A DNA stretch of 59,541 nt. Origin: Anaerolineae bacterium (GTDB lineage: Bacteria > Chloroflexota > Anaerolineae > 4572-78 > NAK82). The translations under genes and the position numbers were made by a program. This document shows, piece by piece, positions 594 to 41,597 of this stretch. The first letter of the stretch is position 1; each line of letters begins with the position of its first letter. The notes beneath the pieces are model-generated. The model had not been told where the DNA came from and did no database searches. It worked only from the letters and a program-made list of their open reading frames with translations. The DNA lies in contig JASFBB010000034.1 in assembly GCA_036172345.1 (NCBI GenBank), positions 1-59,541 on the forward strand. The letters are read 5' to 3'.

Positions 594-626
594 AGGTGTA
601 GCCAGTTCTGTGGAGGCTTTCTTATT

Positions 627-1622: not shown

Positions 1623-1634
1623 GGCAAGGCAGTT

Positions 1635-2285: not shown

Positions 2286-2436
2286 GACCCTGAGCGCACA
2301 GATCTTCACCACAACCCTTGTGGAAGCTGCTATCTTGGTTATGTTGAAACGAACCTCTGGAAGTTACCAACCGCATTCAGCCGTGTGGTTCAGCATGAAA
2401 GGTTTCATCCAGCCGCTCTAGATACTATCTGGAGAT

Positions 2437-3504: not shown

Positions 3505-3714
3505 AATTCTCCACCTCTCATTGAATTGCTAAGATCCTTTTAATCTGCCAATCTGCCCCAGCGATGATCTCAAACTTACTTTCCACCGCCGGGCCGCCAT
3601 CAACGACGTAACTGTGCCTGCTCCCTCACAATCTAAATACCGACCTCGTTCGCTAGAGTTACGTTAAGCTACACTATGCCCCACGCTAATCTGAGCGCCA
3701 GCACCCAGCTCCTG

Positions 3715-5255: not shown

Positions 5256-5469
5256 AGCTCCCCTCTTTTATTTCAGGCACTCGAAGCCTTCGATCCACCA
5301 GAAAGCGAGAAACCTGTAGGCGGATGCCTTCTTCGTCACTGTCCTTAGGGGTGGCGACATCCGACGCGGGCTCATCCTCAAGGACAGGACATCCGCACGG
5401 TTGCAACATCCCTAAACTGCCATATGCGACTTTCAAGAGAAAACTTTATATGCTTATGCCAGGTGCTCA

Positions 5470-6495
5470 TTAGCGTTGCGGCTCGATGATCACTTTGATT
5501 GAATCACGTGCTTGAGCCACCAGTTGATAACCCAATTGGATTTCGGCCAAACTCAGGCGGTGGGTGATCATCTCGGCTACACGCACACTCCGAGTACGAA
5601 TTAGCTCCAAGGCTACGACAGCATCCCTTGGGCCACCGGAATATGAGCCAACGAATGTGATCTCCTTGAGCAACAGATCGTTGACGGAAAAAGGCAGCGT
5701 ATCCCCAGGGCCGGTGAGAGCGAAGAATAGAATAGTACCGCCTGGTTCGACTGAGCGTAGAGCATGCTGCAATGCAAGCAATGCTCCCGTAGTCGTCACT
5801 ACAAGATCAGCTAGACGACCATTGTTGACCTCGCGCAATCGCTCAGGTGTATACTCCTGAGCATGCCAGACAACATCGGCGCCAAATCGGCGCGCTGCAT
5901 CCAGGCGATAATCGTTTATATCGGTCGCCATAACCCGGCGGGCCGCTAGCGCACGAGCCAGCTGGATGTGCAGCAGCCCAACAATCCCGCTACCTATTAC
6001 TAGCACACTGTGACCAGCTTCCATTCGTGCTAGCCGCATGCCGCGCACGACACAGGCTAGAGGTTCGACAAAGGTGCCCTCCTCATATGAGACATTATCA
6101 GGTAGCAGGTAGACACCACGCTCAACATTGATAGCCGGTACCCGCACGAACTCTGCAAAGCCACCGGGATAAAAGTTAGTGATGTGGAAAGTCTCACATG
6201 TCGTATGGTGTCCGTTTAGACAACGGTGGCAGATATTGCAGGGTACATGATGATACACAAAGACGCGGTCCCCTACCCGGTACTGCGATACCCCCAAACC
6301 CAAAGCCACTACTTGACCAGCGATTTCGTGGCCCGGCACTTGGCCGATCTTGTGCTTTCGATACCACTCCACGACATCGCTACCACAGATTCCGCTGGCC
6401 TCCACACGCACTAGTAGCTCTCCGGGCCCAATATCCGGTACAGGCATTTCTTCCACCCGGACGTCGTTGACACCATAGTACACTGCAGCGCGCAT
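5470..6495 (-). CDS. Zn-dependent medium-chain polyol/alcohol dehydrogenase
   Basis: 341 aa with 'ICGSDV', 'GHEIAGQVVALG', 'CNICHRCLNGHHTTC' and 'VLVIGSGIVGL'. Confidence 0.85.
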   Translation of the reverse strand: MRAAVYYGVNDVRVEEMPVPDIGPGELLVRVEASGICGSDVVEWYRKHKIGQVPGHEIAGQVVALGLGVSQYRVGDRVFVYHHVPCNICHRCLNGHHTTCETFHITNFYPGGFAEFVRVPAINVERGVYLLPDNVSYEEGTFVEPLACVVRGMRLARMEAGHSVLVIGSGIVGLLHIQLARALAARRVMATDINDYRLDAARRFGADVVWHAQEYTPERLREVNNGRLADLVVTTTGALLALQHALRSVEPGGTILFFALTGPGDTLPFSVNDLLLKEITFVGSYSGGPRDAVVALELIRTRSVRVAEMITHRLSLAEIQLGYQLVAQARDSIKVIIEPQR

Positions 6496-6766: not shown

Positions 6767-7411
6767 TCAACGTTGGCCATACTGGTTGGCATACAGGGCA
6801 GCTATCTCGGCCAGCTGCTCCGCTGTTAGGAGGATAGGCTGGCCACGTGTCATCGCCAAATGTGTGATCTTGGCAATTTCCTCCACCTCGACTGCTATCT
6901 TAGTCGCTACCCAGGGTGACGAGCCGATGGTGAAGATACCATGGTTCTGCATAATGATAGCCTGTGATTTGCCAATCTTCCGGACGATTTCAGCACCAAT
7001 GGCTTCGCCGCCGATGGGCACGTACGCACCCAGTGGCACCTCACCACCCAGCATAGCACTGGCAGTCAAACAGGCTGGGATGGGTTGTCCTAGCACAGCA
7101 AAAGTGGAAGCATACGGCGAGTGAGTGTGAGCTATGCCAAATACGTCAGGCCGATGGCGGTAGACGTACAAGTGGGTGCTGGTATCTATAGAAGGCACCA
7201 AGGTGCCCTCGACTACCTTGCCCTCTAAATCTACTACCACCATATGGGCTGGGGTCAGATCTTCATAGCGGTAGCCACTTGGTTTGATTACCACCAGGTC
7301 AGTGTCAGGATCACGCCCACTTACATTACCACTGGTCATTTTGACCAGTCCGTTTTTTGGCAGCTCTAAGTTGCACTTCCAAACTTCTTCACGGAGCGTC
7401 TCTAACATCAT
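6767..7411 (-). CDS. araD: L-ribulose-5-phosphate 4-epimerase / class II aldolase family
   Basis: 214 aa, colinear by eye with E. coli AraD: 'LPKNGLVKMTSGNVSGRD', 'VIKPSG', 'PSIDTSTH', 'IAHTHSPYAS'. Confidence 0.8.
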   Translation of the reverse strand: MMLETLREEVWKCNLELPKNGLVKMTSGNVSGRDPDTDLVVIKPSGYRYEDLTPAHMVVVDLEGKVVEGTLVPSIDTSTHLYVYRHRPDVFGIAHTHSPYASTFAVLGQPIPACLTASAMLGGEVPLGAYVPIGGEAIGAEIVRKIGKSQAIIMQNHGIFTIGSSPWVATKIAVEVEEIAKITHLAMTRGQPILLTAEQLAEIAALYANQYGQR

Positions 7412-7456
7412 ATCGGCATCACCCCCAATCTAGAATATAAACCACCTTGACAGTGT

Positions 7457-8887
7457 TTAAGGATCACCACTATGAACTAATGCCCCTCCTTGCAATGTCA
7501 GTCTCTCCAAAAGCTGGCACAACTTGCGCCGATACCGTCGCGGATCAGTATACTTGTTCCATAACCGACGCGCTGTGCGTTTCAGCTGATTAATCGGCTT
7601 GCGTCTCTGGCTCTCAGCCAACGCCCACCGCATAAACTCCCAGTCGTGTCCCTTGATCTTCAGCTCGGTGGGATTGCGCCTGTATGAGTCGTAATCCTCA
7701 ATCAGCGAGAGTCCGTGCTCCATTGTGTAGTCATATAGATCGGTGCCGGGATGCGGCGTATAGAACGCCGGGCTATAATAGTCCGGATCGATCTCTTTAA
7801 GCATCGACACTGTCTCCAGCACTTCTTCTTGTGTCTCAGTGGGCATGCCGAGCATATAGTTTGCCCAGATAGTCAGGCCATACTTGCGGCAGATCTTCGC
7901 CGCTTCCAGATTAATGCGCCGAGTGGTGCCCTTGCGCAGGAACTTCAGCACGCGATCTGAGCCCGATTCAAAACCGATGAACAATCCCTTCAGCCCATTT
8001 GCCGCCATCAGGGCCACCGTCTCTTCGTGACGCACCATTAGATCGGCGCGTGCCTGACAGAAATAGGGCTGCCAAAACCCTCCCGTCCGGTATGCTTCCA
8101 CGAACTCCTCGCACCACCGATGGTCTTCCAGAAGACAATCATCGTGAAACATAAAGCTATTGAAATGATAGCGCTCCCGCAGCTCTTTGAGCTCGCCAAT
8201 AATATTGGACACCGAACGCCGACGCGTTCCTTTGCCGAACAAGAAATCCTCAGCCGGCTTGCAGAAGCTACAATTGTACATACAACCACGACCAGCAATG
8301 ATGGTGACAAAGGGCGGCGGCAGCTCCTCCACAAAGGGCACCTCAGGCGATCCCAGGTCATAGCCGAACTTGCGCCACTCATTGAGAAAGAGATCACGGT
8401 CGGCATAGGGTAACCGATCGAGATTGGGGTGGATGCCGATCAATAAGCGATCTTCCGGTGGTTGCCTTTCCGCGATGGCGCGTAACAAATTAGTGAACGT
8501 GATCTCCCCCTCCGCGACCACTACATAATCCACGCGCGGGTTGTCGAGCACACTCTGCGGCTCAAATGAAGGATGCGGTCCGCCCACCACAGTGACTGTA
8601 TCCGGCTTCGCTTCTTTGATGATCTCGACCGCCTTCATCACCGGATTGAAATCCACGCTCATCATCGTCAGGCCAACGATATCGGGGCTCCGTTGCAGAA
8701 ACTCCCGACGGAAATGGTCCCAGCCATCCAGAGCTCGCAGGTCGATCAAATCAATGGCAAAACCGTGGGCACGGGCGTAAGCGGAGATGCTCGCCAAACC
8801 GTGGCTGATCCAACCCGAGTCCATGCCCTGTTTCAAACTGTTAAACCCTTTGCCCGCGATGCCAGCGTAAATAAGCGTCGTCCTCAT
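7457..8887 (-). CDS. B12-binding-domain radical SAM enzyme (class B rSAM), paralogue A
   Basis: N-terminal cobalamin-binding-type domain ('DIVGLTMMS...TVVGGPHPS') and CX3CX2C motif 'GRGCMYNCSFC'. I place the start at ATG 8887 ('MRTTLIYAG'), 10 nt after the upstream stop, rather than at 8938. Confidence 0.85.
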   Translation of the reverse strand: MRTTLIYAGIAGKGFNSLKQGMDSGWISHGLASISAYARAHGFAIDLIDLRALDGWDHFRREFLQRSPDIVGLTMMSVDFNPVMKAVEIIKEAKPDTVTVVGGPHPSFEPQSVLDNPRVDYVVVAEGEITFTNLLRAIAERQPPEDRLLIGIHPNLDRLPYADRDLFLNEWRKFGYDLGSPEVPFVEELPPPFVTIIAGRGCMYNCSFCKPAEDFLFGKGTRRRSVSNIIGELKELRERYHFNSFMFHDDCLLEDHRWCEEFVEAYRTGGFWQPYFCQARADLMVRHEETVALMAANGLKGLFIGFESGSDRVLKFLRKGTTRRINLEAAKICRKYGLTIWANYMLGMPTETQEEVLETVSMLKEIDPDYYSPAFYTPHPGTDLYDYTMEHGLSLIEDYDSYRRNPTELKIKGHDWEFMRWALAESQRRKPINQLKRTARRLWNKYTDPRRYRRKLCQLLERLTLQGGALVHSGDP

Positions 8888-9751: not shown

Positions 9752-11233
9752 CTACGCAGACTCCATCGCTTTTCTCAAGTCTTCCCTCTCCCGACGCGGG
9801 AAAAGTGTGCGATAGGCCAGTCGGAACGTGCGGCGCCAGTTGATCCAAAAATCCTTGCGCAATAGGGTGCGTATGATGCGGTGGGGACGCAGATAGAAAC
9901 GTCGATAGGCTTCACGCCACTTACGCTCGACCAGCTCGGCGGTCAGAGCCCCCATCTCGTAGCGCGCCCTGCCTTCGAAGAAGACATACTCATCCCAGTC
10001 CGTCACCAACATACGACCATGCTCCTTAACGATCTCATACACTCTCGTGCCTGGGTAAGGGGTCATCATAGAGAAATTGGCGATCATGGGATCGAGCTCG
10101 CAAGCAAAGCGGATAGTGCGCTCCATTGTTTCCTCCGTTTCCCCGGGCAAGCCGATGATGAAAAAACCGATCGTCTCCAGGCCAACTTCTTTGGCATTCT
10201 TGAATGCCCGCCGGATTGTATCCATGTCGATGCGTTTGTTGATCGAACGCAAGATTTCCGGATCGCCCGACTCGACCCCGAAGGCGGTGCGCTTCAACCC
10301 GGCCTGTTTCATGCGTGCCAGCAGCTCCTTGGAAGCAAGATCGGCGCGGATGCCGTTGACGAAGATCCAGGGCACATGATTCAGATGATGTTCGATGAGC
10401 AAGTCGGAAAGGCGCATCAGTCGGTCCGCGCGGATGTTGGCGCTGTCGTCCAACACACCGATCTCCTGTGCACCCAGGTCCTCAACCAGATGACGCCACT
10501 CCAACAGGATGTTCTCGGGAGTGCGTGCACGCCATTTTTGCGGCATGATGCTTTGCGAACAATATGTGCAACGGTAGGGACAGCCACGCGAAGTGAGAAT
10601 GCTGAAACTTCGGGCGCCATCCACCGCATCAACGGCCGGTTGCAGGTTGGTGTAGCGTTCCATCTTAAAGTAATGGTAGGCCGGCCAGGGGAGGCCGTCC
10701 AGATCGGCAATGGGCGGTCTCGCGGGATTGTGATGCACATTGCCATCTGCAGTCTGATAGGTAATGCCTTGCACTTGGTCCAGAATACGGGCTTGCGGGT
10801 CAAGCAGCTGGCTGACGGTGAGACGGGGCGCTGCCTGGAGTGCGCGCTCCAGGACGGCGCTCAGTTCCAGCCACGTCTCCTCGCCTTCGCCGCGAACTAC
10901 GATATCCACCTCCGTGCGACTGGCACTCTCCTCCGGCAAAACGGATGGATGCGGACCACCCAGCACGATCGGCACATCCCGCACGTTCTTGATCGCTTGC
11001 GCGGTGCGCCAGGCTTGCTTGACCTGGGGGGTATTGGCTGTGATGCCTACCAAATGGGGTTCGAAACGGCGCACCACATCGACGACACTCTCATCCTCTA
11101 CGTCAGCGTCGAAGACTATCACCTCGTCACCACGTCGTTCTGAAACGGCGGCTAAGTAGGCCAACCCCAGATGAGGTGTCGTGCGCGTGTCGATCGGCAG
11201 ACGAAATCTAGGATTGACCAGCAGAACTCGCAT
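9752..11233 (-). CDS. B12-binding-domain radical SAM enzyme (class B rSAM), paralogue B
   Basis: 493 aa with 'HLVGITANT...IVLGGPHPS' and CX3CX2C motif 'SRGCPYRCTYC', plus 'FGVESGDPEIL' and 'IIGLPGET'. AGGAG lies 9 nt before the ATG. Confidence 0.85.
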   Translation of the reverse strand: MRVLLVNPRFRLPIDTRTTPHLGLAYLAAVSERRGDEVIVFDADVEDESVVDVVRRFEPHLVGITANTPQVKQAWRTAQAIKNVRDVPIVLGGPHPSVLPEESASRTEVDIVVRGEGEETWLELSAVLERALQAAPRLTVSQLLDPQARILDQVQGITYQTADGNVHHNPARPPIADLDGLPWPAYHYFKMERYTNLQPAVDAVDGARSFSILTSRGCPYRCTYCSQSIMPQKWRARTPENILLEWRHLVEDLGAQEIGVLDDSANIRADRLMRLSDLLIEHHLNHVPWIFVNGIRADLASKELLARMKQAGLKRTAFGVESGDPEILRSINKRIDMDTIRRAFKNAKEVGLETIGFFIIGLPGETEETMERTIRFACELDPMIANFSMMTPYPGTRVYEIVKEHGRMLVTDWDEYVFFEGRARYEMGALTAELVERKWREAYRRFYLRPHRIIRTLLRKDFWINWRRTFRLAYRTLFPRREREDLRKAMESA

Positions 11234-18945: not shown

Positions 18946-20501
18946 GCACCCCGTTGCATCAAGTCGCTCTGCGCCTACACCCAGACGACGAAATAGTGAT
19001 CGCGCGGACGACCTTGAAAGAGGGCACTGTCCTGCTGCTGGACGACGAAGACGAAGCCGCGATGATCCTTGTAGTGCGCCAGACGGTGCCAGCAGGACAT
19101 AAGCTGGCGGTGCGACATATTGCTCCCGGTGCCGAGGTGCATCGCTATGGCCAGATCATAGGGTTCGCCACCCGAGAAATCCGGCCCGGTGACCATGTGC
19201 ACACTCATAACCTGGACTCGTGTGCCTTCCCTCGCCCAGTCGCTGAAATTTTCCCCCAGCCTGTACGGCCGATCCTTGTAGAACAAAGGGATACTTTCTT
19301 GGGATATCCGCGTCGTTGGGGCGGGGTGGGCACGCGCAACTATCTGGCAGTCATCCCCTCTGTGAACTGCGCGGCGGATGTAGCTGTCGCCATCGCGCGC
19401 CATTTCACGCCGGAACGTATGGCGGCGTGGCCGCACGTGGACGGTGTGATCCCTTTTGTCCATCAATCCGGTTGCACGTTGCGTATTGGCAGCCCTAACT
19501 ATCGATTGTTGCAGCGTACGCTAGCCGGCATCATCTGCCATCCCAACGTCGGCGGGGTGTTCCTGGTGGGATTGGGCTGCGAGTGCAATCAGATCGCCGC
19601 TCTGTTGGAGAACCATCATTTGATGCAAGACCCCGATGCATCAGAGCGCATCTGCAGCGTAATCATCCAGGAAAGCGGCGGTAGTAGCAACGCCATTCAG
19701 CGGGGTATTGCTTTAGTAGAAAAGATGTTATCCTATGTGGAGGTTGCACGGCGCATTCCACAACCCTTGTCTGAGCTCAAGATCGCACTGCAATGTGGCG
19801 GCAGTGACAGTTGGTCGGGTGTGACCGCCAACCCGCTATTGGGCTTGGTGGCGGATGAGGTAGTGCGGCAAGGCGGCACAGTGGTGTTGTCGGAGACGCC
19901 GGAGATTTATGGTGCCGAGCACCTGCTGGCAGGACGGGCAGTCAGCACGGCCGTGCGCGATCGATTGTTGGCAAAAGTGCGCTGGTGGGAGGACCATGCT
20001 CGTCAGTTCGAAATGGAGCTGGACAATAACCCCACGCCGGGGAACAAGGCTGGCGGTATTACCACCATTTATGAAAAGTCACTGGGCGCGGTTGCCAAAG
20101 GGGGCAATACACCTCTAATGGCTGTCTACGAGTATGCCGAGCCGATCACAGCGCGCGGGCTGGTTTTCATGGATACTCCTGGCTACGATCCGGTGGCCAT
20201 CACCGGCCAGATCGCTGGAGGCTGTAACATAGTGCTCTTTAGCACAGGGCGTGGTTCGGGACTGGGCAGCCGCTTGGCACCGGTGATTAAGGTGTGTTCT
20301 AACTCGGCTACCTATCGCGCGATGTCAGCCGATATCGACTTCAATGCAGGTGCTATTTTGGAAAGCACCGAGATGACGAAAGCGGCACGAGATCTTTTAG
20401 CGTTGCTCATCCGTATCGCCTCTGGAGAGCCGTCAAAAAGCGAGCAGCAGGGCCTTGGGGAAACTTCTTTCATCCCATGGAGCTTGGGCGGGACATTATA
20501 G
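18942..20501 (+). CDS. UxaA/GarD-family sugar-acid dehydratase (altronate/galactarate dehydratase-like)
   Basis: 519 aa with an N-terminal SAF-like domain ('LHPDDEIVIARTTLKEGT') and a UxaA C-domain. The GTG start overlaps the SDR stop (GTGA). Confidence 0.82.
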   Translation: MSTPLHQVALRLHPDDEIVIARTTLKEGTVLLLDDEDEAAMILVVRQTVPAGHKLAVRHIAPGAEVHRYGQIIGFATREIRPGDHVHTHNLDSCAFPRPVAEIFPQPVRPILVEQRDTFLGYPRRWGGVGTRNYLAVIPSVNCAADVAVAIARHFTPERMAAWPHVDGVIPFVHQSGCTLRIGSPNYRLLQRTLAGIICHPNVGGVFLVGLGCECNQIAALLENHHLMQDPDASERICSVIIQESGGSSNAIQRGIALVEKMLSYVEVARRIPQPLSELKIALQCGGSDSWSGVTANPLLGLVADEVVRQGGTVVLSETPEIYGAEHLLAGRAVSTAVRDRLLAKVRWWEDHARQFEMELDNNPTPGNKAGGITTIYEKSLGAVAKGGNTPLMAVYEYAEPITARGLVFMDTPGYDPVAITGQIAGGCNIVLFSTGRGSGLGSRLAPVIKVCSNSATYRAMSADIDFNAGAILESTEMTKAARDLLALLIRIASGEPSKSEQQGLGETSFIPWSLGGTL

Positions 20502-21259
20502 CATCTAGATGGCAACCCTATACAGTTGGCAACGGTGTCGTGGAACAGCGCAACGATGCCATGCTGTTCCGCATCCACGATACCGACACCCGACGTTATA
20601 GCAATGCTCAAATTGACGACTACCGAAGGTTGCCACGCCAGCACCTGCGCTGGCGGCCACCACTGCAGCTGAGAGTGCAGGCACGTTTCTCCCATCCAGC
20701 TGGGATGCTGCGTGGCACTGCTGGCTTCGGCTTCTGGAACGATCCCTTTATGATGAGCGGAGCACGTCGGCCGGCGCTGCCACGCGCCATATGGTTCTTT
20801 TACGCCTCACCTCCCTCAGACATGCAGCTGGCACTCGACGTACCTGGTTGTGGATGGAAGGCGGCCACACTGGATGCGACACGAATGGGAGCATTGGCCC
20901 TCACACCACTTGCACCCTTGGCAGTGTTAGCAATGCGCCTCCACCCTCTCTATCGGCGCCTATGGCCAGCGATTCAACATGCGTTAGGGATACAAGAAGC
21001 TCCGTTGCCAGTGGATATGACCGATTGGCATGTCTACACGCTGGAATGGCTGTCCGGGTGGGCGAACTTTTACGTGGATGGCGAGCTCATTCTGGGCAGA
21101 GCGCCATCCCCACGCGGCCCTTTGGGCTTTGTAATGTGGATTGATAATCAGTACATGATCGTCACGCCGCAGGGTCGTCTGGGTTGGGGGCTGCTGGAGA
21201 CCAACGGCGAACAATGGATGGAAATCAGCCATGGGGAAATTAAAGCGGAATTGCACTAG
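20477..21259 (+). CDS. hypothetical protein, possibly ConA-like lectin/glucanase (GH16-like) fold
   Basis: 'WHVYTLEW...NFYVDGELI...WIDNQYM' resembles the beta-jelly-roll core of the GH16/LamG superfamily. No signal peptide. Start uncertain, since it overlaps the uxaA-like end by 25 nt. Confidence 0.4.
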   Translation: MELGRDIIASRWQPYTVGNGVVEQRNDAMLFRIHDTDTRRYSNAQIDDYRRLPRQHLRWRPPLQLRVQARFSHPAGMLRGTAGFGFWNDPFMMSGARRPALPRAIWFFYASPPSDMQLALDVPGCGWKAATLDATRMGALALTPLAPLAVLAMRLHPLYRRLWPAIQHALGIQEAPLPVDMTDWHVYTLEWLSGWANFYVDGELILGRAPSPRGPLGFVMWIDNQYMIVTPQGRLGWGLLETNGEQWMEISHGEIKAELH

Positions 21260-21437
21260 GATGCGGTGTAGGACATCCCTGTCTCTTTCACGGATTAAGC
21301 GCTCTAGGGTGTCTCAATGCGAACCCTGGTAATATCATCAGGGACGTCTGCTTTGCCTGATTCACAGAGGAGGTTGCTGCCTGCACAGGTTCGGTCGAGT
21401 TCCTCCACCTCTTCCCTATGCCACCCTGTCCAGATTA

Positions 21438-21446
21438 TGATATACT
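21438..21446 (+). promoter_or_regulatory. candidate extended -10 promoter upstream of nurA
   Basis: TGATATACT lies about 54 nt before ATG 21500. There is no good -35. Confidence 0.3.
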
Positions 21447-21499
21447 ACGTTGTAAGTGCTGTGTTTCCGCTTCGTTATGGATCCTATACTTAGAGTCCC

Positions 21500-22711
21500 A
21501 TGTTTGTGCGGAGCCGTGTGATCAACGCCCTTGAGGCAAAGAAAGCGCATTTCTCCCATTATCAGGGGGCTGTGCACGAGCGTGCCATCAGGTTCGATGA
21601 GGCGCTTGTATCCATCGCTTCCCTCACCCAGGCCGAGATCGAAGCACGCCTGGAAGCAACTGGGGTGACACGCCCAGGGGCCTTGCCCACGCATGAGCAA
21701 GATCAGACGCACACTGTCGTGATCCGATTTGACGCTCAATGGAACACCCACGAAGAGGCACGCGCCTGGGCGAAGCACGTCTTGCAAGGCCAGCCCACTT
21801 TTGCCGCGGATGGATCTCAAATCCCTCATTCGCGCGACTTTTCGATCCCTGTGGCGGCCATCCAGATCGGTTGGTTTGAAAATCCCCATTCTCGCTCTCA
21901 GCCATATCTCAAAGATCTTTCCTTCGAAGTGCTGACACCGGATGAGTTGGCGACATATGAGGAGAACGCTGAAACCTCTGATCCCACATTCAGCGGCAGC
22001 ACATTTCCTGGCATCTTGGTCAACCTGCGCCGCTTCCAGGGTGAATGTCAGCGTATGATCACCTATATGTTGGAACGTGCCACTCATGATCCCAAGCCAT
22101 TGTGTTTCTTTGATGGCTCACTAACCCTATCCTTTGCCCGTCACTTGAGTCCTCAACTACGACAAGAGTACCTCAAATCTATCGTGGATATGTTGCGTAC
22201 TTCGCAAACAACCGGTGTGCCCCTTGTAGGCTATGTGGACGGCAGCTACGCGCGTGATCTGATCACGATGCTCTCACTTGTCTCGGGAATGCCTATGCCC
22301 GCCCACCTCAACGATGGGATGTTGCTACAACCCCATATGCGCTGGGGAGATCGCAGTCAAGTATATTGGTGTGCGCGTGATGATGAAGTATTGCCACTTT
22401 ATGAGACGCAGGTAGGTCGAATTGCCTTCGCGTATCTCAAAGCAAGCGCCACAGCTCCGCCAGCACGCGTGGAGCTTCCGGGCTGGTTGTTAGAGGATCA
22501 CACGAAACTGGAACGCATTTTTGATCTGATTCGAGCAGAGTGTGTGGTGGGCAACGGTTATCCCTACGTTCTAGAGACCGCCGATGCAGTGGCGGTAATC
22601 TCAGCAGAGGACCGTCAACGTTTCTATACAGTTTTCCAACAATTTGCAGAGAAGGAAGGTCTAATGCTACGTTACTCGCGCAAGGCGCGCAGTAAGGCGA
22701 TCCGCCGTTGA
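21500..22711 (+). CDS. nurA: NurA-domain 5'-3' nuclease
   Basis: 403 aa with 'TFAADGSQI', 'FFDGSLTLSF', 'GYVDGSYARDL' and 'NGYPYVLETADAVAVISAEDRQRF'. This is the NurA (PF09376-like) motif pattern. Confidence 0.75.
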   Translation: MFVRSRVINALEAKKAHFSHYQGAVHERAIRFDEALVSIASLTQAEIEARLEATGVTRPGALPTHEQDQTHTVVIRFDAQWNTHEEARAWAKHVLQGQPTFAADGSQIPHSRDFSIPVAAIQIGWFENPHSRSQPYLKDLSFEVLTPDELATYEENAETSDPTFSGSTFPGILVNLRRFQGECQRMITYMLERATHDPKPLCFFDGSLTLSFARHLSPQLRQEYLKSIVDMLRTSQTTGVPLVGYVDGSYARDLITMLSLVSGMPMPAHLNDGMLLQPHMRWGDRSQVYWCARDDEVLPLYETQVGRIAFAYLKASATAPPARVELPGWLLEDHTKLERIFDLIRAECVVGNGYPYVLETADAVAVISAEDRQRFYTVFQQFAEKEGLMLRYSRKARSKAIRR

Positions 22712-22748
22712 CCACCATGTTACAAAGAACCGCCCAGGAGCACCGCCT

Positions 22749-23336
22749 ATGCAAATTGGAAAAATCGTGAAATCTAACAGCCATGTGGATTACGTGTGCC
22801 AGATCAACAACCCTGGAGAGTTCAGCACACTTCCACAACCCCAAGACTACGCCTTTGGCACCTTTGTACGCGTTGACCTAGGCGATGGATCGGGCTATTT
22901 GGTCGGTCTCATCTACAGCACTATCCTCATGAACCCTGAGTTTGGCAACTTGGGGCCTCGGCTATCACCTCCAAGCGACTTGGAGATTTTCTCACCGGAC
23001 TACTTGCGCGAACAAGCTACGTTGGTCAGCATTCTGGCCGTCGGACAGGTGATGCGAGATGGGGAGGTTTATCAGGGAGTACCCTTGCTAGCGGCCACAG
23101 TTAACGCGGCGGTGGAAACCATGTCGCCGGATGAGATTCGCCATTTCCACACATCCAGTGGCCGCCTATCTCTGGCATACGTGCCCAGACTGTTGGCGGA
23201 GGGGGACGCCATCACGCCCCACCTGCTGCTTAAAGTGGTAGAGCAGCTGATCGTGCTGTTCCCTGAGCAGAAACGCCAGCTGGCCGTCCTGCGCGGCAAT
23301 CTTGCTTGGAAGGCGGCCGTGACCCCGGCAGGATAG
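22749..23336 (+). CDS. hypothetical protein; possible stand-alone HAS-barrel-like protein
   Basis: 195 aa, with CAGGAG 10 nt before the ATG. The N-terminus 'IGKIVKSNSHVDYVCQI...FGTFVRVDL...YLVGLIYSTILMNPEF' mirrors the barrel pattern at the N-terminus of the adjacent HerA. No Walker motifs. Confidence 0.5.
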   Translation: MQIGKIVKSNSHVDYVCQINNPGEFSTLPQPQDYAFGTFVRVDLGDGSGYLVGLIYSTILMNPEFGNLGPRLSPPSDLEIFSPDYLREQATLVSILAVGQVMRDGEVYQGVPLLAATVNAAVETMSPDEIRHFHTSSGRLSLAYVPRLLAEGDAITPHLLLKVVEQLIVLFPEQKRQLAVLRGNLAWKAAVTPAG

Positions 23337-23421
23337 GGGGCGGCTATTCTTCCTCTCCTGTGTTCTTCAGGTGTAGAAACGCCAAGCTGGAGGCTGAGCC
23401 GGTTAAATAAGAGGGTATCAG

Positions 23422-25086
23422 ATGGACAGACAATGTATTGGCACGACAAAGGGCCCTGGTGAATCAGCTCACGAATACACTTTCATAACACCCGACCCAG
23501 AACGACATATCAAGGCAGGAGAGTTTGTCTATTACGAAATGGAGATAGAGGGTAAACTGCGTCAAATCTTGGGACGCGTCACGCACCGCATCCCTCTACG
23601 TCTCTACCCGGACACCTTTATGGCCGACCCCGGCGTGCCTCCCGCCGAAGTTGCCGCAATGTTAGGCTTCCGTGAACAACACCATGAGCTCTTTGAAGTG
23701 ACCGTAGTGGTGATGGGCTACTACCAGCCAGAGTTGGGCGATTTCGTCAACCCGCGTGTGCCGCCAGAATCCGGCGCTCCTATATATATTGCAGAGGATG
23801 CATTATTGGCACAAGTGCTTTCCAAGAAGCAAACCGGCGAAATAGGTTCTGCGCATATTGGCTGGTTGTTAAGCAGGGATCCTGGCGCTGTGCCTGTCAA
23901 TTTGGATGTGCGCAGCATCACCAGCACCCATCTGGCCATCATTGCCGGTACCGGCGCGGGCAAGAGCTATCTGGCTTCAGTGCTCATTGAGGAGCTGATG
24001 AAACCTTATAATCGGGCTTGCGCCCTGATTGTCGACCCGCACGGCGAGTATAGCACGCTGATGGAGATGATGGGGCACCGTGAATTTTGCACTGAGGATT
24101 ACCAGCCCGAGGTCTACGTTGTCCGTCCTGACCAAATCCGCGTGCGCATTTCTTCACTTGAACTGAGTGACTTTCGCTACTTATTGCCCAATCTCTCGGA
24201 GAAGATGCACTTCCGCTTAGGACAGACCTACTACGCTGTGCGCCGCAAGCACGGTGACAAATGGACACTAGGCGATTTTATGACCACACTGCGCAGCGGA
24301 GACGAGGAGCGTAGTGTTACAGATCCCCAAGCGGATGCTGAACTAGAAGAAGATCCTACGACTGGAGCATTGATATGGCGGGTCAACAGCGTGTTCCAAG
24401 GATCAAGGATCTTCCACGACTTTGAGAATATGTCCTTGGTAGATCTATTCCGGCCAGGGCAGTGCACTGTATTACAACTGAACGAGATTGACCAGCGCGA
24501 GCAGCAGCTGGTGGTAGCAACGTTGCTGCGCCGATTGTGGCGAGCGCGCATGGAAACCGAAAAGGGCCGCTCGAAGGAAGGTCAGGACACTTATCTGCCC
24601 TATCCAGCATTTGTCCTAATCGAAGAGGCGCACAACTACGCTCCGGCAAATGCAGAAGTGGTCACCACAGGTATTCTCAAGACCATTCTTTCTGAGGGGC
24701 GCAAGTTCGGTGTGGCAGTAGGATTGATCAGCCAGCGCCCTGGCAAGCTCGATAGCGATGTGTTATCTCAGTGTATGACGCAATGCATTATGCGCATCGT
24801 CAATCCGGTTGACCAGGCGCGCATCGCCGAGAGTGTCGAATCGGTGGGACGTGACTTGTTGCAAGAGCTGCCAGCTTTGTCCAAGGGACAAGTGATCATC
24901 GCCGGAAGTGCGGTGAACACGCCACTGTTATGTCGTGTGCGCCCGCGTATCACCCGCCACGGCGCCGAAGATCCCGACGCACCGGTACGCTGGCAGCGAT
25001 ACTTCTCACAAACTCAAAGAGACAACCGCGAACGCGAATCCGCATTGCCGTTGGAACCAAGGCGTAGCAGCCGGATGTACAAGTAA
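23422..25086 (+). CDS. herA: HerA-family (FtsK/HerA superfamily, DUF87) hexameric ATPase/helicase
   Basis: 554 aa with a HAS-barrel N-terminus, Walker A 'IIAGTGAGKSYL', Walker B 'FVLIEEAHNYAP', and 'EGRKFGVAVGLISQRP'. Confidence 0.88.
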   Translation: MDRQCIGTTKGPGESAHEYTFITPDPERHIKAGEFVYYEMEIEGKLRQILGRVTHRIPLRLYPDTFMADPGVPPAEVAAMLGFREQHHELFEVTVVVMGYYQPELGDFVNPRVPPESGAPIYIAEDALLAQVLSKKQTGEIGSAHIGWLLSRDPGAVPVNLDVRSITSTHLAIIAGTGAGKSYLASVLIEELMKPYNRACALIVDPHGEYSTLMEMMGHREFCTEDYQPEVYVVRPDQIRVRISSLELSDFRYLLPNLSEKMHFRLGQTYYAVRRKHGDKWTLGDFMTTLRSGDEERSVTDPQADAELEEDPTTGALIWRVNSVFQGSRIFHDFENMSLVDLFRPGQCTVLQLNEIDQREQQLVVATLLRRLWRARMETEKGRSKEGQDTYLPYPAFVLIEEAHNYAPANAEVVTTGILKTILSEGRKFGVAVGLISQRPGKLDSDVLSQCMTQCIMRIVNPVDQARIAESVESVGRDLLQELPALSKGQVIIAGSAVNTPLLCRVRPRITRHGAEDPDAPVRWQRYFSQTQRDNRERESALPLEPRRSSRMYK

Positions 25087-25097
25087 TTATCGACGCC

Positions 25098-25156
25098 TCT
25101 CTCAGCTCATCGCTCGCTTGCGAAAGCGCTTTACCTCCCAACGTACTGAGAGGTTT
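25098..25156 (+). terminator. candidate terminator after herA (nested hairpins)
   Basis: Outer stem TCTCTCAG (25098-25105) pairs with CTGAGAGG (25146-25153), followed by TTT. Inner hairpin is CGCTT-GCGA-AAGCG (25115-25128). Confidence 0.35.
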
Positions 25157-25227
25157 AAGAAGCCCTAGTTTACTCATCCATGATGTACCGAGAAACCAGG
25201 AATTTATCCATAGTGTTGCGAATGATT

Positions 25228-26125: not shown

Positions 26126-28075
26126 TCAATTGCGTCTGTGAGTGCGCATCCGAAGGAGCAGCGCGGTCAACAGAACGAGTGCCGCTAGCAAAGCAGCGCT
26201 CCCGGCCCATAGTAACGGCGGAGCATCCCAAACGATCATCCCTTGTGGCTGTCTGACGGTCATCGCCCCGGCAGAACTTTTTCCTTCAGGAGCAGAAACA
26301 GCAGAGGACAACGGGGAAACAGCCTCCCCAGAAGGCAGCGAGCTCGTCACGGGTGATAACCTCTCCGTAGGAGACCAAGGCGACAGAGTAACACGCGAGG
26401 TACTCGCTGGGTTGAAAGATGGTATACCTGTGGATGCGCCCCATGGTGTAATGAAAGGTGGTATTGTAGCAGTGGATGTTCCAACCATCGCTTGTAGCGG
26501 CGCGGACCATGCATCACGCGGTGGAGATGGGACATAATGGGTGGTCATCAGGGTGGGTGCGAGCACGATAACCGTTGTGGCAGTTCCAATCGTGGCGGTC
26601 TCGACCCATTTGGGCGTGCGCGTAGCTGCGCTTATGACCACGTAACGGGGGGCTGTTGGAGTGGCTGTGCTGGTTTGAGGAGTCGCCTGTGGCGTGTCAG
26701 TGGGTAGATCGACTACAGGCAACCTACCAGCATCCCCCAGCAGTTTAACGAACGCAGCATTTACCCATCCCAGAGTATCACTGCGGGGCACCTCAATCTG
26801 CCACCAGCTGGCCTCGCTGTTTCGCGCGAGCACCTTTGCCCGTTCCCCTTGCGCCAGACGTCCAATCCGCGGATAGGTAATGTCCGGCCCACTGCGGATG
26901 CGCACTGCCTCCTGGGCAAGCACATAAGGACCATTTTCCACGAGCGTAGCGATAGGTGTAGGGGGCGGCACCGATGTTTCTCGAGTGACCATCCCCGGCA
27001 CCAGAGAAGATGCCTCTGAGACGGATGATCCCTTAAACTGAGCACCCAGCTCGCGCGTCAGGTTGAGATACAGGTCGCCATAGCGGACACTCGGCTCGAT
27101 CATCGTGCCTTCCACCCACTCGTTAAAGCTGGTGATCACTACCCAATCTGGCCGGCTGGCAATGGCCGCAGACCAAGCAGCACGGTAGTAGTCGCCATTG
27201 CGTCGATGCACGGCAAAAGCTGTGGCACGGCCACTGCGCGTGTCATCATAACCTGGCATAACAGTTGCCACCCAAAATCGACGTACACCATAGTCATCGG
27301 CATAACGCCGCACGCGTTGCCCCCAATCTTGCAACGTACGCGCCACATCGGATGACCATGCGATGGAATAGAGATAATGCCCATCGAATACGCGTTGATA
27401 ACTCAGATCGGTACCCTCAGCGATCCATATGCTGCTATGATCCGGATCGACCTCCTTACGAATGGCGTTCCATGCATCGACGCTAAAACGTTGCTGACGC
27501 CAGAAGAAAATCACCGGACGCCCCTGATAGCGCAGATAGGCAGGATGTTGGGCATGCACGCTCAGAAGATAATGTAATGCTCCGACTACGGACACTTGAT
27601 CAGGGAAAAATGGGCCATTGGTCTCAAATGCGAGCGCAGCGCGAAACCCTTTATTTGCTGCCACGTCCAGCAAAGTGCGAAAGTTGGTCTCTGTCTGATT
27701 GTCAGTTTCTTGGGGACCATACCACGATTGCACTAAGGCATCAATGCCAGCTGCCTGCGCCTGATCCACATGGCGCTCGATGGTCGCCACGTCGCTCGAA
27801 CGATAAAGCTGCAAGGGCATATCGGGGGTGATACCTGCTGTCCAGGTACCCTCGTCATACCAGGCATAATAGAAGGCCAACACCAGAGGAATCTCCTGCG
27901 CAAGGACAGGAGTGACATCTGAGGTGAGCACCAGGGAACAGGTGAAGACGAGCAGTAACAGAACGCTAGTAGCGCCGACGGAAGATAACTTCCTTGACCT
28001 GTACAGAGTTAGATTTGTCACAGTCCTCGATGGTATCCGATTTCCACTTAAAGGTTTCAGACGCCTGTACGCCAT
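26126..28075 (-). CDS. membrane-anchored secreted protein: glycoside-hydrolase-like (GH99-like?) domain + SH3b domain + Ser/Thr/Pro linker + C-terminal TM helix
   Basis: N-terminal signal/anchor, then '[13 protein letters not shown]...[15 protein letters not shown]'. SH3b-like '[39 protein letters not shown]'. C-terminal '[27 protein letters not shown]'. Start uncertain (ATG 28075 or GTG 28021); either overlaps the upstream gene. Confidence 0.5.
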
Positions 28076-28727
28076 CCTGATACAATCGCACGAACCAGGT
28101 ATGTGGACGCTTGGCGTTCTGCTTGTCCTTCCCTCCCAGAATCAGGGGTACGGCAAATTCTCCATCCACATCGGTGGTGGTGCGGAACGTGCTGATGTTC
28201 TCCTCGCCATATTCAACCACAATACCCTCCAACGGGATGCCATCCGCATCAAAGACGTACCCTTTCATGCCGATATCATAACAATTCTGGTAATTCTTGA
28301 ATTCAGCAACATAGAAAGGCACCTGCGTTGGTGTTGCTGTGATGGTGGGTGTTTCAGTGGGCGTACTCGTCTGGGTGGGTGTGGGCGTGTAAGTGGCCAA
28401 CGGTGTGCGTGTATGCGTAGGCGTACGCGTGGGTGTGGGTGTACCGGTAGCGGTAGGCGTGCTGGTCGGCAGCGGCGTGGGAGTGGGCACAGGTGTCCAA
28501 GTCGGTGGATAAGTGGGGATACCCTCTGGGGTGAAAGTAGGCGTTGGAGGAGGGGGAAGCGGCTGCTCAGCACTCAGCCCCAGGACAAGCGGTTGCTCCG
28601 GTGTGTAGGTCACGAACAGGATGCCGTAGATCAGCAGCGTGGTTACGATCATCACAGCCATCAAAAAGAGGAATAGGGTGGTGAAACGCTCTCTCTCTTG
28701 TCCCGGCATCGTTCCCTCCTCTCGCAC
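27966..28727 (-). CDS. membrane-anchored protein with Thr/Pro-rich linker and carboxypeptidase-regulatory-like (CarboxypepD_reg) domain
   Basis: N-terminal TM '[24 protein letters not shown]', a ~90-aa TP repeat linker, then '[22 protein letters not shown]...[13 protein letters not shown]'. Confidence 0.55.
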
Positions 28728-28774: not shown

Positions 28775-30088
28775 CTAGTCGTGTGTGATGGCCAGAAAGC
28801 TGGTATCATCCACCAACACAAAAGAATCGACACCCGCATAGGGTAACACAACCACCCGCATCTTGCTGCGCGGATATGACTGGACCAGCTGTGCAGTAGC
28901 TCGCTGCAATTGAGCAATGCGCTGCTGAGCGGGATAATTAGGATAGCGACCTAATGTCCCGGCAAGGATCTCGCGACGCAACACCTCTTCAGTCGCCCTC
29001 TCGATTTGGTCAGCATCCGGCATCGCCACGATCAGGTCGGCATAAAGCGCAAACAGCAACTCATAGGACTTGGTCAAATCAGCACGGATCGTCTCCGCTT
29101 GAGCTTCCCACTCGGGTAACAGGCTGAGACCGTACCCACGTCGTGCAATGCGATACTTCATTGCCAGCCAATTGATGCGCGCCTGCACGACGCTGATTTG
29201 CGCTGAGAGCTGCACAACTGAAGCAATCTGTGCATCGTAGTAGGGCAACCTGACGCGATCCTCAGCAACCAACGCACTAGCTAGAGCACTTACCAGCTGT
29301 TGTGGAGCACGACCGCCTCGCGCGATCAATTGCTCGACCAAGTTTTGTGCAGCAGACCAACGCTGCGCTTCTGCCTGCTGCACTTCCAACGGCAAAGGAG
29401 GCGGAGCGGCAACCGGCAGCACTGGCGGCAGCTCGGGCACGGTGACCGGCGCGAACGATTGAGCACTGGACTCCAAGCTTATGCGTGCGCGCTCGCGATC
29501 ACCAATCATCTGGTATCCCTTATGCAGCCGCTGGAACAGGTTGCGCCGTGTGGCGGGCTGCAGATAAGCGCTTGCCGTTGCCACATTATAAGCTTGGTCC
29601 AAGTAGAGCTGGGCTAGACCATACTCGCCTAGTGTCGCCAATCCCTCACCCGCTAAGATAAAGGTGTCTGCACGTACTGTGTCTGGCAGATCGGGACTCA
29701 ACGTGGCGATGGTCCCGGCCAGGCGATAACTTTGAGTCGCCTGTTCGTCCCTGCCATCCTTGCGATAGCGATCGGCCAGCAAAAGAAAATCGCCGGCACT
29801 TTCCCGATCATCAATAGAGGGACTGAACACCAGGATCGCAAAAGCGGTGTCTGGTCTTCCTTGCGCCAGAGCTTGGGCCACCAGATCTTTATCCGCCACT
29901 CCTCCCAGCCCTCCCACCACGAGTGCCGGGTCAATCTTGGTGTAGTCCACCAAGCTCAGCGGGTCACGCCACGGAGGCACCTGAAAGGGCTGCCGACGTG
30001 TCAAGAAGTATGTGCTCAGTGCGACGATCCCTATTGCGACCAATATGACAATCGTGGCAAACAACAATGCCAAGAGCCATTTGCGCAT
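28775..30088 (-). CDS. hypothetical single-pass membrane protein (helical repeat ectodomain)
   Basis: Start placed at ATG 30088 ('[24 protein letters not shown]'), 7 nt after the upstream stop. The remainder is Ala/Leu-rich and helical. No family recognised. Confidence 0.45.
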
Positions 30089-30095
30089 AGGCCAG

Positions 30096-31289
30096 CTACT
30101 GGGATTGATAGCGTTCAATGACAGCGTTGGCACGCTGCCCGGCCAGCCACGCTTGGAAAGCATTCTGTTGTGCATACAGCAGCATCTCCGGAGCTAACGG
30201 GTGATTATCCTCCCGCGCTTCTACCTTGATGATATGGTAGCCTACCTCACTTTGTACTAATTGAGATACCTCACCAACTGAGAGCGCAAACGCTGTCTGC
30301 ACCACCGCTGGAGGCATCAAAGCGACATCGCGTGGAAACCATCCCAGATCGCCTCCATTGGCAGCCGTGCTGGCATCCTCAGATTCCTGCTGCGCCAACG
30401 CGGCAAAGTTCTCCCCCTTCCTCAAACGTTCCAACAGAGCCTGCCCTTTGGCCCGATCCACTGTGAAGATATGGCGCGCATGGACCTGCTCAGCAACTGC
30501 AGGCACCGTTGCCGAGACCACGGCAATCACCTTGCTCGCCAGCAGCTGTGCACGCTGCATAGCGCGCAGTTCCTCCTCGGTCATATTATTCATCTGCAGC
30601 CATTGTTCAAGCGATGCTACATCTTCGCCAACTACACTTTGCAAGGATTGCTCAAGCTCTTCATCGGTCACGGTGATGCCCATCTCAGCCGCGGCTTGCT
30701 CGATGAGCACTTGATCAATCAACCCCTGCAGCACATTGGCACGCAGCTGCGCCCTCTGCGCCTCGCCAACTTCCCCCTGAGCCATAATGCCCTGCTCTAT
30801 AAGAGCCCTTTCGGTCTGTTCCACCTGTTTCTGATAGACATCCAGGTAGATCGGCTGACCGTTCACACGTGCAACCAAGGGCCTTCCACCCTGAGAGGAT
30901 CTTGGCTCTGATGGAGATAACAAGGGTGCAGGGGTCACTGGAGGGATCATCGTGATCGCAGGTGAAGGTGTCGACTGGGAAGTCGCTGTGATGTTTGGTG
31001 AGGCTGCTGAGGATGGAAGTGTAATTGTAGTCTCAAGCGAGAGCGCTGGCGTGTTAGATTGTATAGTGATCTGAGTCAAGGCAGGGGACCCACTTTGCCC
31101 TCCTGCACCGCCGCAAGCGACCAGCAAGGGCAACACGGCAGCAATCACCAGTAGAACACTCGCCGTGTTGTGGCATTTAGTTGTTTGAAGGATATTCCGA
31201 TCCCTCGGGGACAATCTCTGCAGCGCTCCCAAAGATGGCAGGGATTTGAGCAACCGTCGTAGAGTCACCATTCTCGTAGCGTCCCACAC
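30096..31289 (-). CDS. PpiC/parvulin-type peptidyl-prolyl isomerase lipoprotein (PrsA/SurA-like)
   Basis: Lipobox 'PLLVAC' and SurA-N-like helical region. Parvulin domain 'HARHIF...NGGDLGWFPRD...VGYHIIKV'. Confidence 0.85.
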   Translation of the reverse strand: MWDATRMVTLRRLLKSLPSLGALQRLSPRDRNILQTTKCHNTASVLLVIAAVLPLLVACGGAGGQSGSPALTQITIQSNTPALSLETTITLPSSAASPNITATSQSTPSPAITMIPPVTPAPLLSPSEPRSSQGGRPLVARVNGQPIYLDVYQKQVEQTERALIEQGIMAQGEVGEAQRAQLRANVLQGLIDQVLIEQAAAEMGITVTDEELEQSLQSVVGEDVASLEQWLQMNNMTEEELRAMQRAQLLASKVIAVVSATVPAVAEQVHARHIFTVDRAKGQALLERLRKGENFAALAQQESEDASTAANGGDLGWFPRDVALMPPAVVQTAFALSVGEVSQLVQSEVGYHIIKVEAREDNHPLAPEMLLYAQQNAFQAWLAGQRANAVIERYQSQ

Positions 31290-41476: not shown

Positions 41477-41531
41477 GTTGGCATCAGCCATCCACATCGC
41501 AAGTGAGAGATGTTCAGTTACTGATCAGCAC

Positions 41532-41571
41532 AAACGGTCGCTTGCCAACTACCCCTTGGCGGCGACCGTTT
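41532..41571 (+). promoter_or_regulatory. intercistronic stem-loop between SBP and ATPase genes
   Basis: AAACGGTCGC (41532-41541) pairs perfectly with GCGACCGTTT (41562-41571). An inner 5-bp stem is GCCAA/TTGGC with a 7-nt loop. Confidence 0.55.
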
Positions 41572-41597
41572 CACACGCTTGGGAGACTACCTCAGAG

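Follow-up and report, generated by a model that had tools for sequence, protein, structure and literature searches.

DUF8166, a conserved gene between nurA and herA in Chloroflexota, encodes a predicted stand-alone HAS-barrel and probable third component of an archaeal-type end-resection module

Introduction

What does a third gene do between nurA and herA? The question is raised by a 59,541-nucleotide (nt) contig of an Anaerolineae bacterium (phylum Chloroflexota; GenBank JASFBB010000034.1, assembly GCA_036172345.1, positions 1 to 59,541), referred to below as the window. Here, a gene for a 195-amino-acid (aa) protein, gene 2, is enclosed by genes for a NurA nuclease (gene 1) and a HerA ATPase (gene 3). 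Work on HerA-NurA in archaea, Deinococcus, and Thermus has dealt with a machine of two proteins. In addition, several anti-phage systems are built on HerA rings, their effectors docking on the collar of HAS-barrels. This domain (PF09378) is the N-terminal barrel of HerA and of the alpha and beta subunits of F1/V1-ATPases.

A preliminary description of the locus took gene 2 for an orphan, considered the three genes a self-contained module, and proposed an undescribed three-component HerA system for either defense or specialized DNA processing. Here, we examine the protein families, predicted structures, and genomic neighborhoods of the trio. The evidence favors a role in DNA end resection over a defense system. 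With moderate confidence, we read the trio as the end-resection half of an archaeal-type Mre11-Rad50-NurA-HerA system for the repair of DNA double-strand breaks (DSBs), in which the family of gene 2, DUF8166, is a conserved third component.

Results

A NurA nuclease and an archaeal-type HerA flank gene 2

The three genes are codirectional on the forward strand, at 21500 to 22711 (403 aa), 22749 to 23336 (195 aa), and 23422 to 25086 (554 aa). They are separated by 37 nt (nurA/gene 2) and 85 nt (gene 2/herA) and preceded by 240 nt of noncoding sequence 5' of nurA. This layout agrees in every coordinate with the preliminary description, and the peptide motifs quoted there were all found in the translations. 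The family assignments proposed for the two outer genes hold as well, as detailed below.

Gene 1 (21500 to 22711, forward strand) encodes a NurA-family, RNase H-like nuclease. Residues 100 to 367 match PF09376 with an E value of 9e-32 (110.9 bits, against a cutoff of 21), and 252 of the 254 profile positions are covered. Across 33 family members, D104 (in DGS), E182, D205 (in FFDGS), and the GYPY motif at residues 353 to 356 are at least 97% invariant. In Sulfolobus, NurA forms a toroidal, RNase H-like dimer whose catalytic residues are D58, E116, and D133 (PMC3326311). The gene 1 residues D104, E182, D205, and Y354 or Y356 occur in the same order as D58, E116, D133, and Y298 of the Sulfolobus enzyme (PMC3326311); judged by motif order rather than by structural superposition, they would be equivalent. 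A sequence search of NurA against the PDB gave no match.

Gene 3 (23422 to 25086, forward strand) encodes a hexameric ATPase-translocase of the HerA/FtsK superfamily, matching PF01935 with an E value of 7.5e-34 (118.2 bits, against a cutoff of 23.2). The Walker A motif GTGAGKS lies at residues 176 to 182 (23947 to 23967, forward strand), with T177, G178, G180, K181, and S182 invariant in 26 homologues. The translation further places the Walker B motif with the catalytic glutamate, FVLIEEAHNY, at residues 397 to 406 (24610 to 24639, forward strand); F397, L399, E401, E402, A403, H404, and N405 are invariant among the homologues aligned. Since the NurA residues D104, E182, and D205, the GYPY motif, and both Walker motifs of HerA are kept, the two enzymes should be active.

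The AF2 model of HerA, computed with database homologues as input, has a predicted local distance difference test (pLDDT) score of 78.5. In agreement with the earlier claim of a HAS-barrel N terminus, it places the protein's own barrel within residues 1 to 135 (23422 to 23826, forward strand), the barrel itself spanning residues 7 to 123. It is built from strands 7-12, 18-23, 35-42, 45-58, 91-102, 107-109, and 120-123, followed by helix 126-132; an insert of low confidence, which contains helices 63-66 and 74-80, interrupts it. At the sequence level, the Pfam HAS-barrel PF09378 stays below threshold, both on HerA (E = 0.057) and in the 4 of 12 relatives that match it (best E value, 0.0074).

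Among solved structures, the nearest relatives of this HerA are the archaeal repair proteins of Thermococcus kodakarensis (1.2e-48; profile search, 2.3e-65) and Sulfolobus solfataricus (7e-36; profile search, 1.5e-46). No Deinococcus HerA chain occurs among its PDB sequence matches, and the window HerA is therefore assigned to the archaeal type. Its best NCBIfam match is likewise NF040819, the archaeal DSB-repair HerA, at 199.3 bits, but it remains far below the equivalog cutoff of 970 bits. These comparisons also bear on a defense role. The window HerA matches many PADLOC HerA models (best E value, 3.3e-42), which would accord with such a role. However, it is the only member of the trio with a PADLOC match, it reaches just 78 to 84 bits on two anti-phage HerA models of NCBIfam, against 199 on the archaeal repair model, and its profile match to the HerA-like ATPase TdpA in the PDB (6.6e-05) is far weaker than those to the archaeal HerAs.

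Gene 2 belongs to DUF8166 and is predicted to be a free-standing HAS-barrel

Gene 2 (22749 to 23336, forward strand) is not an orphan. A search of 5.8 billion proteins returned more than 1,000 homologues, and all 120 of those listed carry a precomputed PF26500 (DUF8166) annotation, as does the window protein itself (P0001, 100% identity). It thus belongs to a named Pfam family, but one that is a DUF and uncharacterized. Despite this annotation, local scans of gene 2 with Pfam, NCBIfam, PADLOC, and PHROGs gave no match. When 1.84 billion cluster representatives were searched exhaustively with a profile, 331 DUF8166 clusters were found at an E value of <=1e-3, nearly all stand-alone proteins of ~195 aa. 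Among 20 members sharing 62 to 90% identity, 57 columns are invariant; P63, G69, R71, P83, D84, E88, F133/H134, and Y144 count among the invariant residues of the protein. PF26500/DUF8166 is unmentioned in the searched literature.

The AF2 model of gene 2 (pLDDT, 82.3; predicted template modeling score, 0.81) divides the protein into two parts. Residues 1 to 125 (22749 to 23123, forward strand) form a predicted beta-barrel, which by charge computation is acidic, with an isoelectric point (pI) of 4.3 that resembles the value of 5.0 for the HerA N terminus. Residues 126 to 195 (23124 to 23333, forward strand) form a basic helical tail (pI 9.5) with helices 127-135, 144-150, 156-170, and 172-191. 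The barrel region contains strands 2-9, 14-19, 39-43, 49-62, 89-102, 107-109, and 121-124, plus an extra, short strand (66-70), a short helix (31-34), and the helix of the insert (75-81), before helix 127-135 begins. The insert at residues 62 to 88 (NPEFGNLGPRLSPPSDLEIFSPDYLRE; 22932 to 23012, forward strand) is the most conserved segment of the family, with a mean conservation of 0.54 over 96 diverse members and many invariant positions, which makes it a candidate partner-binding loop. In the model, pLDDT is ~50 over residues 61 to 90 and <50 over residues 76 to 86.

When the two models are compared, residues 1 to 135 of gene 2 and 5 to 132 of HerA present the same elements in the same order, including a mid-barrel insert with a helix; the exceptions are the short helix 31-34 and the extra strand 66-70 of gene 2. 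Consistent with this, all 46 Foldseek matches of the gene 2 model in the PDB at an E value of <=1e-3 are HerA chains, including those of Sir2-HerA, DUF4297-HerA, TdpA, Sulfolobus HerA, and Thermococcus HerA-NurA. Each alignment comprises ~135 to 140 columns, and the best root mean square deviation, 3.1 to 3.5 Å, is to the HerA of DUF4297-HerA. The HAS-barrels of all solved structures matched are N-terminal domains of P-loop ATPases, whereas gene 2 stands alone and lacks an ATPase domain. On the strength of these models, gene 2 is predicted to be an additional, free-standing HAS-barrel copy with a short basic helical tail. A split herA, with gene 2 supplying a missing barrel, was considered and rejected: the HerA model holds a complete barrel of its own, so gene 2 is an extra copy rather than a piece of a split gene.

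Sequence alignments were inspected for the same correspondence. With broad profiles, hhalign gave a P value of 0.009 for gene 2 and HerA, which is not significant; its register, covering approximately residues 36 to 132, agrees with the models and pairs GTFVRV with GEFVYY, LVSILAVGQV with EVTVVVMGYY, and AVETMSPDEI with PIYIAEDALL. A weak BLASTP match between gene 2 and the adjacent HerA (E = 0.032) is off register and was discarded as meaningless, and hhalign with narrow profiles reproduced that off-register alignment with a probability of 1.3%. Against the PDB, a sequence search with the family profile found nothing at an E value of <=10, and a single-sequence match was dismissed as a chance hit to a His-tag region.

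Two further candidates concerning the family were rejected. A viral origin of DUF8166 finds no support in searches of 2.9 million viral contigs for relatives and of BFVD for similar structures (E <= 1e-3), both of which were null. In addition, P0205 (448 aa; locus L086, 3127 to 4473) appears to fuse DUF8166 to HerA, as it joins a DUF8166 N terminus, an unrelated low-complexity stretch, and a HerA N terminus; a call that is chimeric or frameshifted, or a misassembly, is the most likely explanation.

DUF8166 neighbors nurA and herA, in part within mre11-like/rad50-like operons

To place the trio in a wider context, genomes were scanned at one genome per species, which gave 213 genomes with a DUF8166 relative, and 80 loci were fetched. 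These derive mostly from Chloroflexota (Anaerolineae, Ardenticatenia, Caldilineae, Chloroflexia, Thermoflexales, and Thermobaculum), along with Acidobacteriota (Blastocatellia) and a few metagenome-assembled genomes (MAGs) of doubtful label. Partners were called with family hidden Markov models, and absence of nurA means that none was found within 3 kb.

The order nurA-DUF8166-herA is present at 24 of the 80 loci. At 30 others, DUF8166 is followed by herA without nurA, and at 4 it is followed by herA while the contig ends upstream. Five loci have nurA-DUF8166 with no herA found (the contig ends in two of them), 12 have DUF8166 alone, and for the remaining 5 no partner was found but the flank is too short on one or both sides. 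Homologues of gene 2 thus do adjoin nurA and herA elsewhere, a point on which the preliminary description had made its proposal depend: herA lies directly 3' of DUF8166 at 58 of 80 loci (58 of the 74 with enough downstream sequence), nurA lies 5' at 29 of 80, and at all 24 loci having both, DUF8166 is between them. Stop and start codons at these loci often overlap or are a few nucleotides apart. The nurA-DUF8166-herA order persists at identities as low as ~40% and is shared by Anaerolineae, Chloroflexia, Thermobaculum, and more distant metagenomic lineages. Moreover, identity to the window proteins covaries between DUF8166 and HerA (r = 0.956, n = 50) and between DUF8166 and NurA (r = 0.979, n = 28), with DUF8166 more conserved than NurA across loci. 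The association with nurA and herA is not obligate. The DUF8166-herA pairs of Caldilineaceae and the nurA-DUF8166 pairs of Acidobacteriota and of metagenomic locus L081 accord with a protein that can bind to one or the other partner.

In evolutionary terms, the trio is not the self-contained module that had been assumed, as in relatives it forms the 3' half of a larger operon. At 19 of the 80 genome loci, plus the metagenomic loci L086 and L088, the order is mre11-like, rad50-like, nurA, DUF8166, herA. The rad50-like protein (900 to 1,030 aa) is encoded directly 5' of nurA and was identified by Pfam as SMC_N with SbcC_Walker_B in three sampled loci. Where the contig allows, a Metallophos protein of ~430 aa with Mre11/SbcD motifs (DxH, GDLF) is encoded 5' of the rad50-like gene. 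The same arrangement emerged from a lookup seeded with HerA and ignoring gene 2: all three long contigs examined (L094 to L096) read Metallophos-SMC_N-NurA-DUF8166-HerA, with a weak Rad50_zn_hook match on the SMC_N protein of one. Their neighbors are housekeeping genes (V-type ATPase, RecG, and a pyruvate:ferredoxin oxidoreductase-type enzyme).

The window departs from this arrangement. No open reading frame (ORF) in it exceeds 649 aa, and rad50 is therefore not present; the genes 5' of the trio are for sugar-acid enzymes rather than for mre11 and rad50. The earlier remark that no mre11 or rad50 lies nearby is therefore accurate for the window, but it does not hold as a sign of a different function, given that relatives carry both genes upstream. 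A trio without upstream mre11/rad50 is demonstrable only in the closest relatives of the window (L001 to L004, 88 to 91% identity), the upstream sequence of L005, L023, and L087 being too short to judge. The detachment in this lineage is a local rearrangement and no sign of a different function.

Variant contexts of DUF8166

Several loci depart from the common order. In three metagenomic loci (L081 to L083, approximately positions 440 to 5600), genes for a MoxR-like AAA_5 protein, a VWA protein (with Rv0959_3rd), NurA, and a 153-aa zinc-ribbon protein precede a distant DUF8166 member, with no herA within 5 kb downstream of it; this suggests a variant that pairs NurA and DUF8166 with a different ATPase system. 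In a second group, from Blastocatellia and MAGs labeled Clostridia (L064, L066, L068, L073, and L070), four loci have nurA-DUF8166 without a nearby herA. Judged by eye, the next gene in L064 and L068 starts like histidine ammonia-lyase in its N-terminal sequence, a urocanase-like ORF lies further downstream in L073 and L068, and L070 has the same downstream genes as the others but no nurA.

Solo DUF8166 genes, with neither nurA nor herA within ~5 to 6 kb, occur in Caldilineaceae/Anaerolineae (L009, L015, L017, L020, L028, L029, L037, and L045). Two MAGs carry two copies on separate contigs: W31_78 has one copy beside herA and a second, solo copy, and both copies of a Caldilineaceae MAG are solo. 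The family has therefore undergone duplication and may function outside the operon. The solo gene of L009 is flanked by a 1,070-aa ORF (1440 to 4652), whose N terminus resembles a CHC2 zinc-finger primase, and a 624-aa ORF (6900 to 8774), a context that may be a mobile element. The most distant members sampled (L084 and L085, E ~1e-19) directly follow genes for a PAC2 (proteasome-assembly-chaperone-like) protein and TatC. PAC2 and HAS-barrels are both associated with ring complexes. Finally, on a short contig (L092, 980 to 1777), an N6/N4 DNA methyltransferase gene lies 6 nt 3' of DUF8166, the sole defense-like neighbor seen.

Expression signals and other genes of the window

The extended -10 element reported upstream of nurA does exist, as part of a sigma-70-like promoter candidate at 21418 to 21446 (forward strand; ATGCCA-17 nt-TATACT with TG before the -10, 54 nt 5' of nurA, matching 9 of 12 consensus positions). 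However, the evidence for a promoter is weak, as matches of that grade are barely enriched over shuffled sequence (5 in the region versus 2.9 ± 1.8). Shine-Dalgarno-like sequences read from the DNA are AGGAG at 22736 to 22740 (8 nt 5' of the gene 2 ATG) and GAGGG at 23411 to 23415 (6 nt 5' of the herA ATG), both on the forward strand. The hairpins and T-run proposed as a terminator after herA could not be reproduced: no site 3' of herA passed the terminator scan, RNA from 25084 to 25175 does not fold better than shuffles (z = -0.75; 41 of 200 shuffles at least equal), and a T-run is absent. An Rfam scan of the whole window returned zero matches.

As previously noted, the neighbors are unrelated to the trio. 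By Pfam scan, genes for an SDR protein and a galactarate/altronate dehydratase and a 260-aa ORF without a family lie on the 5' side, and a CN_hydrolase gene lies on the 3' side. The 260-aa ORF (20477 to 21259, forward strand) sits between the dehydratase gene, whose 3' end it overlaps by 25 nt, and nurA; it has no significant family, its weak match being to GH16 (E = 0.054). The wider window encodes a GH99 protein, a SurA-like peptidyl-prolyl isomerase, an FGGY kinase, MttB, a pyridoxal phosphate enzyme, a formyltransferase, and an ABC transporter.

On the reverse strand, ORFs at 26126 to 28075, 27966 to 28727, and 28775 to 30175 may form a cell envelope gene cluster; it includes a GH99/GH71-like protein with an SH3 domain and a Pro/Thr/Ser-rich C terminus, beside a 253-aa ORF with long PTPT repeats and a 466-aa ORF without a Pfam match. 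A 547-aa protein (41478 to 43121, forward strand) matches the PADLOC models mad3, mad8, and AriA. Its gene is flanked by ORFs of ABC transporter component size, and these matches probably reflect generic ABC-ATPase similarity. A 493-aa ORF (9752 to 11233, reverse strand) weakly matches PDC-M51A (1e-10).

Discussion

The trio can be compared with three kinds of known systems. It shares its two enzymes with the archaeal Mre11-Rad50-HerA-NurA system of Sulfolobus, Pyrococcus, and Thermococcus (PDB 4d2i and 9x1l), to which its HerA is closest by sequence and with which its NurA shares the order of the catalytic motifs. Relatives of the window further resemble that system in having the mre11-like and rad50-like genes in one operon. 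Unlike in the archaeal system, DUF8166 lies between nurA and herA, the host is a bacterium, and mre11 and rad50 are not adjacent in the window. The NurA-HerA pair of Deinococcus radiodurans and Thermus thermophilus likewise forms a bacterial, nurA-first operon, but one of two genes, with <20% identity to the archaeal proteins and no DUF8166 reported for Deinococcus, whereas the window HerA is of the archaeal type; bacterial NurA-HerA has been placed mainly in Deinococcus-Thermus (PMC9960219). The third kind comprises Sir2-HerA, DUF4297-HerA, and TdpAB (PDB 8wiv, 8wld, 8zir, 8sub, and 8wet), where the HAS-barrel ring of the HerA hexamer serves as effector platform, and whose HAS-barrels match gene 2 best in structure. 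TdpAB contains the HerA-like ATPase TdpA, and TdpB is NurA-like. Neither a third NurA-HerA component nor NurA-HerA in Chloroflexota is described in the searched literature. Together with the conservation of DUF8166, this upholds the earlier notion of an undescribed three-component HerA system, while its defense variant finds little support.

Besides Chloroflexota, a few other lineages of bacteria would carry the repair system. By homology, HerA would act as a hexameric, ATP-driven DNA translocase, and a NurA dimer would dock on the ring of its N-terminal HAS-barrels and digest the DNA fed in. The HerA hexamer offers its HAS-barrel face to NurA for docking, and in the D. radiodurans complex this face is negatively charged (PMC9960219). 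The barrel of DUF8166 is likewise acidic. DUF8166 is probably the third subunit of the NurA-HerA machine, and it would most likely assemble at the interface between the HerA barrels and NurA. It might do so as an extra barrel ring or collar, or as an adaptor joining motor and nuclease; alternatively, it might gate assembly as a regulator or mimic, by binding to NurA or to the HerA collar. The insert loop 62-88 would be the contact surface, and the basic tail could possibly touch DNA. A stronger version, in which DUF8166 is an obligatory third subunit that alters the HerA-NurA architecture, is possible but somewhat doubtful. For example, six free HAS-barrels might stack on the HerA ring as a second collar, or a barrel mimic might occupy the surface by which NurA docks, with its release confined to DNA ends. 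To our knowledge, neither the FtsK-HerA nor the F1-ATPase family offers a described precedent for a free-standing "crown" domain that serves a ring translocase as adaptor or gate.

Several observations weigh against an end-resection role with DUF8166 as third component. Regarding the fold, the query-normalized Foldseek TM-scores of gene 2 are only 0.40 to 0.48, the Pfam HAS-barrel PF09378 does not match gene 2 at an E value of <=0.1, and hhalign of gene 2 against the N terminus of the adjacent HerA returns a probability of 1 to 4%. The proposed homology to the HAS-barrel is drawn from predicted structure, and sequence methods fail to establish it. Regarding the loci, mre11 and rad50 are absent from this window, the solitary DUF8166 genes include second copies in Caldilineaceae, some distant members adjoin unrelated genes, and no bona fide fusion to HerA or NurA was found among 150 listed representatives. 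Because 30 loci combine DUF8166 with herA without nurA and a few combine nurA with DUF8166 without herA, a fixed ternary stoichiometry cannot be assumed. The gene identities, the predicted fold of gene 2, the conserved order, and the linkage to mre11-like and rad50-like genes emerge directly from the present analysis; from these we infer that DUF8166 associates physically with HerA and NurA, where it would sit in the complex, and that the module has a repair role in vivo. The role of bacterial NurA-HerA is itself disputed, as deletions in Deinococcus and Thermus led to modest or even improved resistance (PMC9960219).

The solo and second copies (12 of 80 loci) and the lack of fusions would also fit DUF8166 being a syntenic passenger outside the NurA-HerA machine, with a function of its own such as DNA binding by the basic tail or a part in another ring complex. 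The same holds for distant members that lie beside PAC2/TatC, xanthine-dehydrogenase-type genes, or Hfq, or in the MoxR(AAA_5)-VWA-NurA-zinc-ribbon setting without herA. However, the family keeps its position flanked by nurA and herA from Anaerolineae to Chloroflexia, Thermobaculum, and metagenomic lineages at ~40% identity, overlapping start and stop codons are common around it, its predicted fold is that of the docking domain of its partner HerA, and its divergence tracks that of both partners (r > 0.95). A mere passenger is thus unlikely.

Alternatively, the DNA processing by the module could serve a purpose different from DSB repair, such as export or uptake or the handling of chromosomes or plasmids, with DUF8166 adapting the motor, comparable to the Thermus HerA-like TdtA and its relatives. 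DNA donation in Thermus is indeed driven by a HerA-family ATPase (PMC5365140), bacterial nurA/herA deletions show no clear repair defect (PMC9960219), and many Caldilineaceae have the DUF8166-herA pair without a nearby nurA. Against this, where nurA is present, the prevailing context is one linked to mre11-like and rad50-like genes, and no conjugation, competence, or membrane genes are adjacent, so that we give such a purpose little credence.

Lastly, an anti-phage system in which HerA would be the sensor or motor, NurA the nuclease effector (as in TdpAB, Sir2-HerA, and DUF4297-HerA), and DUF8166 a third component is very improbable: although HerA-based defense systems exist and provide the best structural matches to the gene 2 barrel, the window trio is separated from mre11/rad50, and one distant DUF8166 gene precedes an N6/N4 DNA methyltransferase gene, neither NurA nor DUF8166 matches PADLOC, the HerA similarity to defense proteins is the weaker one, no Sir2, DUF4297, or restriction-modification genes are adjacent, the surroundings are metabolic or housekeeping in the window and housekeeping in relatives, DUF8166 was not found on the 2.9 million viral contigs, and the trio is coinherited and embedded in mre11-rad50 operons.

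On the end-resection reading, NurA and HerA are the known parts of the system, and the conserved third gene and the presence of archaeal-type enzymes in a bacterium are the differences here. An archaeal-type operon of mre11-like, rad50-like, nurA, and herA genes is widespread in Chloroflexota, and the position of DUF8166 between nurA and herA spans a bacterial phylum and beyond. A free copy of the collar, kept as a conserved third protein, suggests that the very interface controlling the nuclease has an unrecognized level of assembly or regulation, and DUF8166 gains a testable functional assignment. If DUF8166 is indeed an obligatory third subunit, this would define a three-component bacterial Mre11-Rad50-NurA-DUF8166-HerA resection system.

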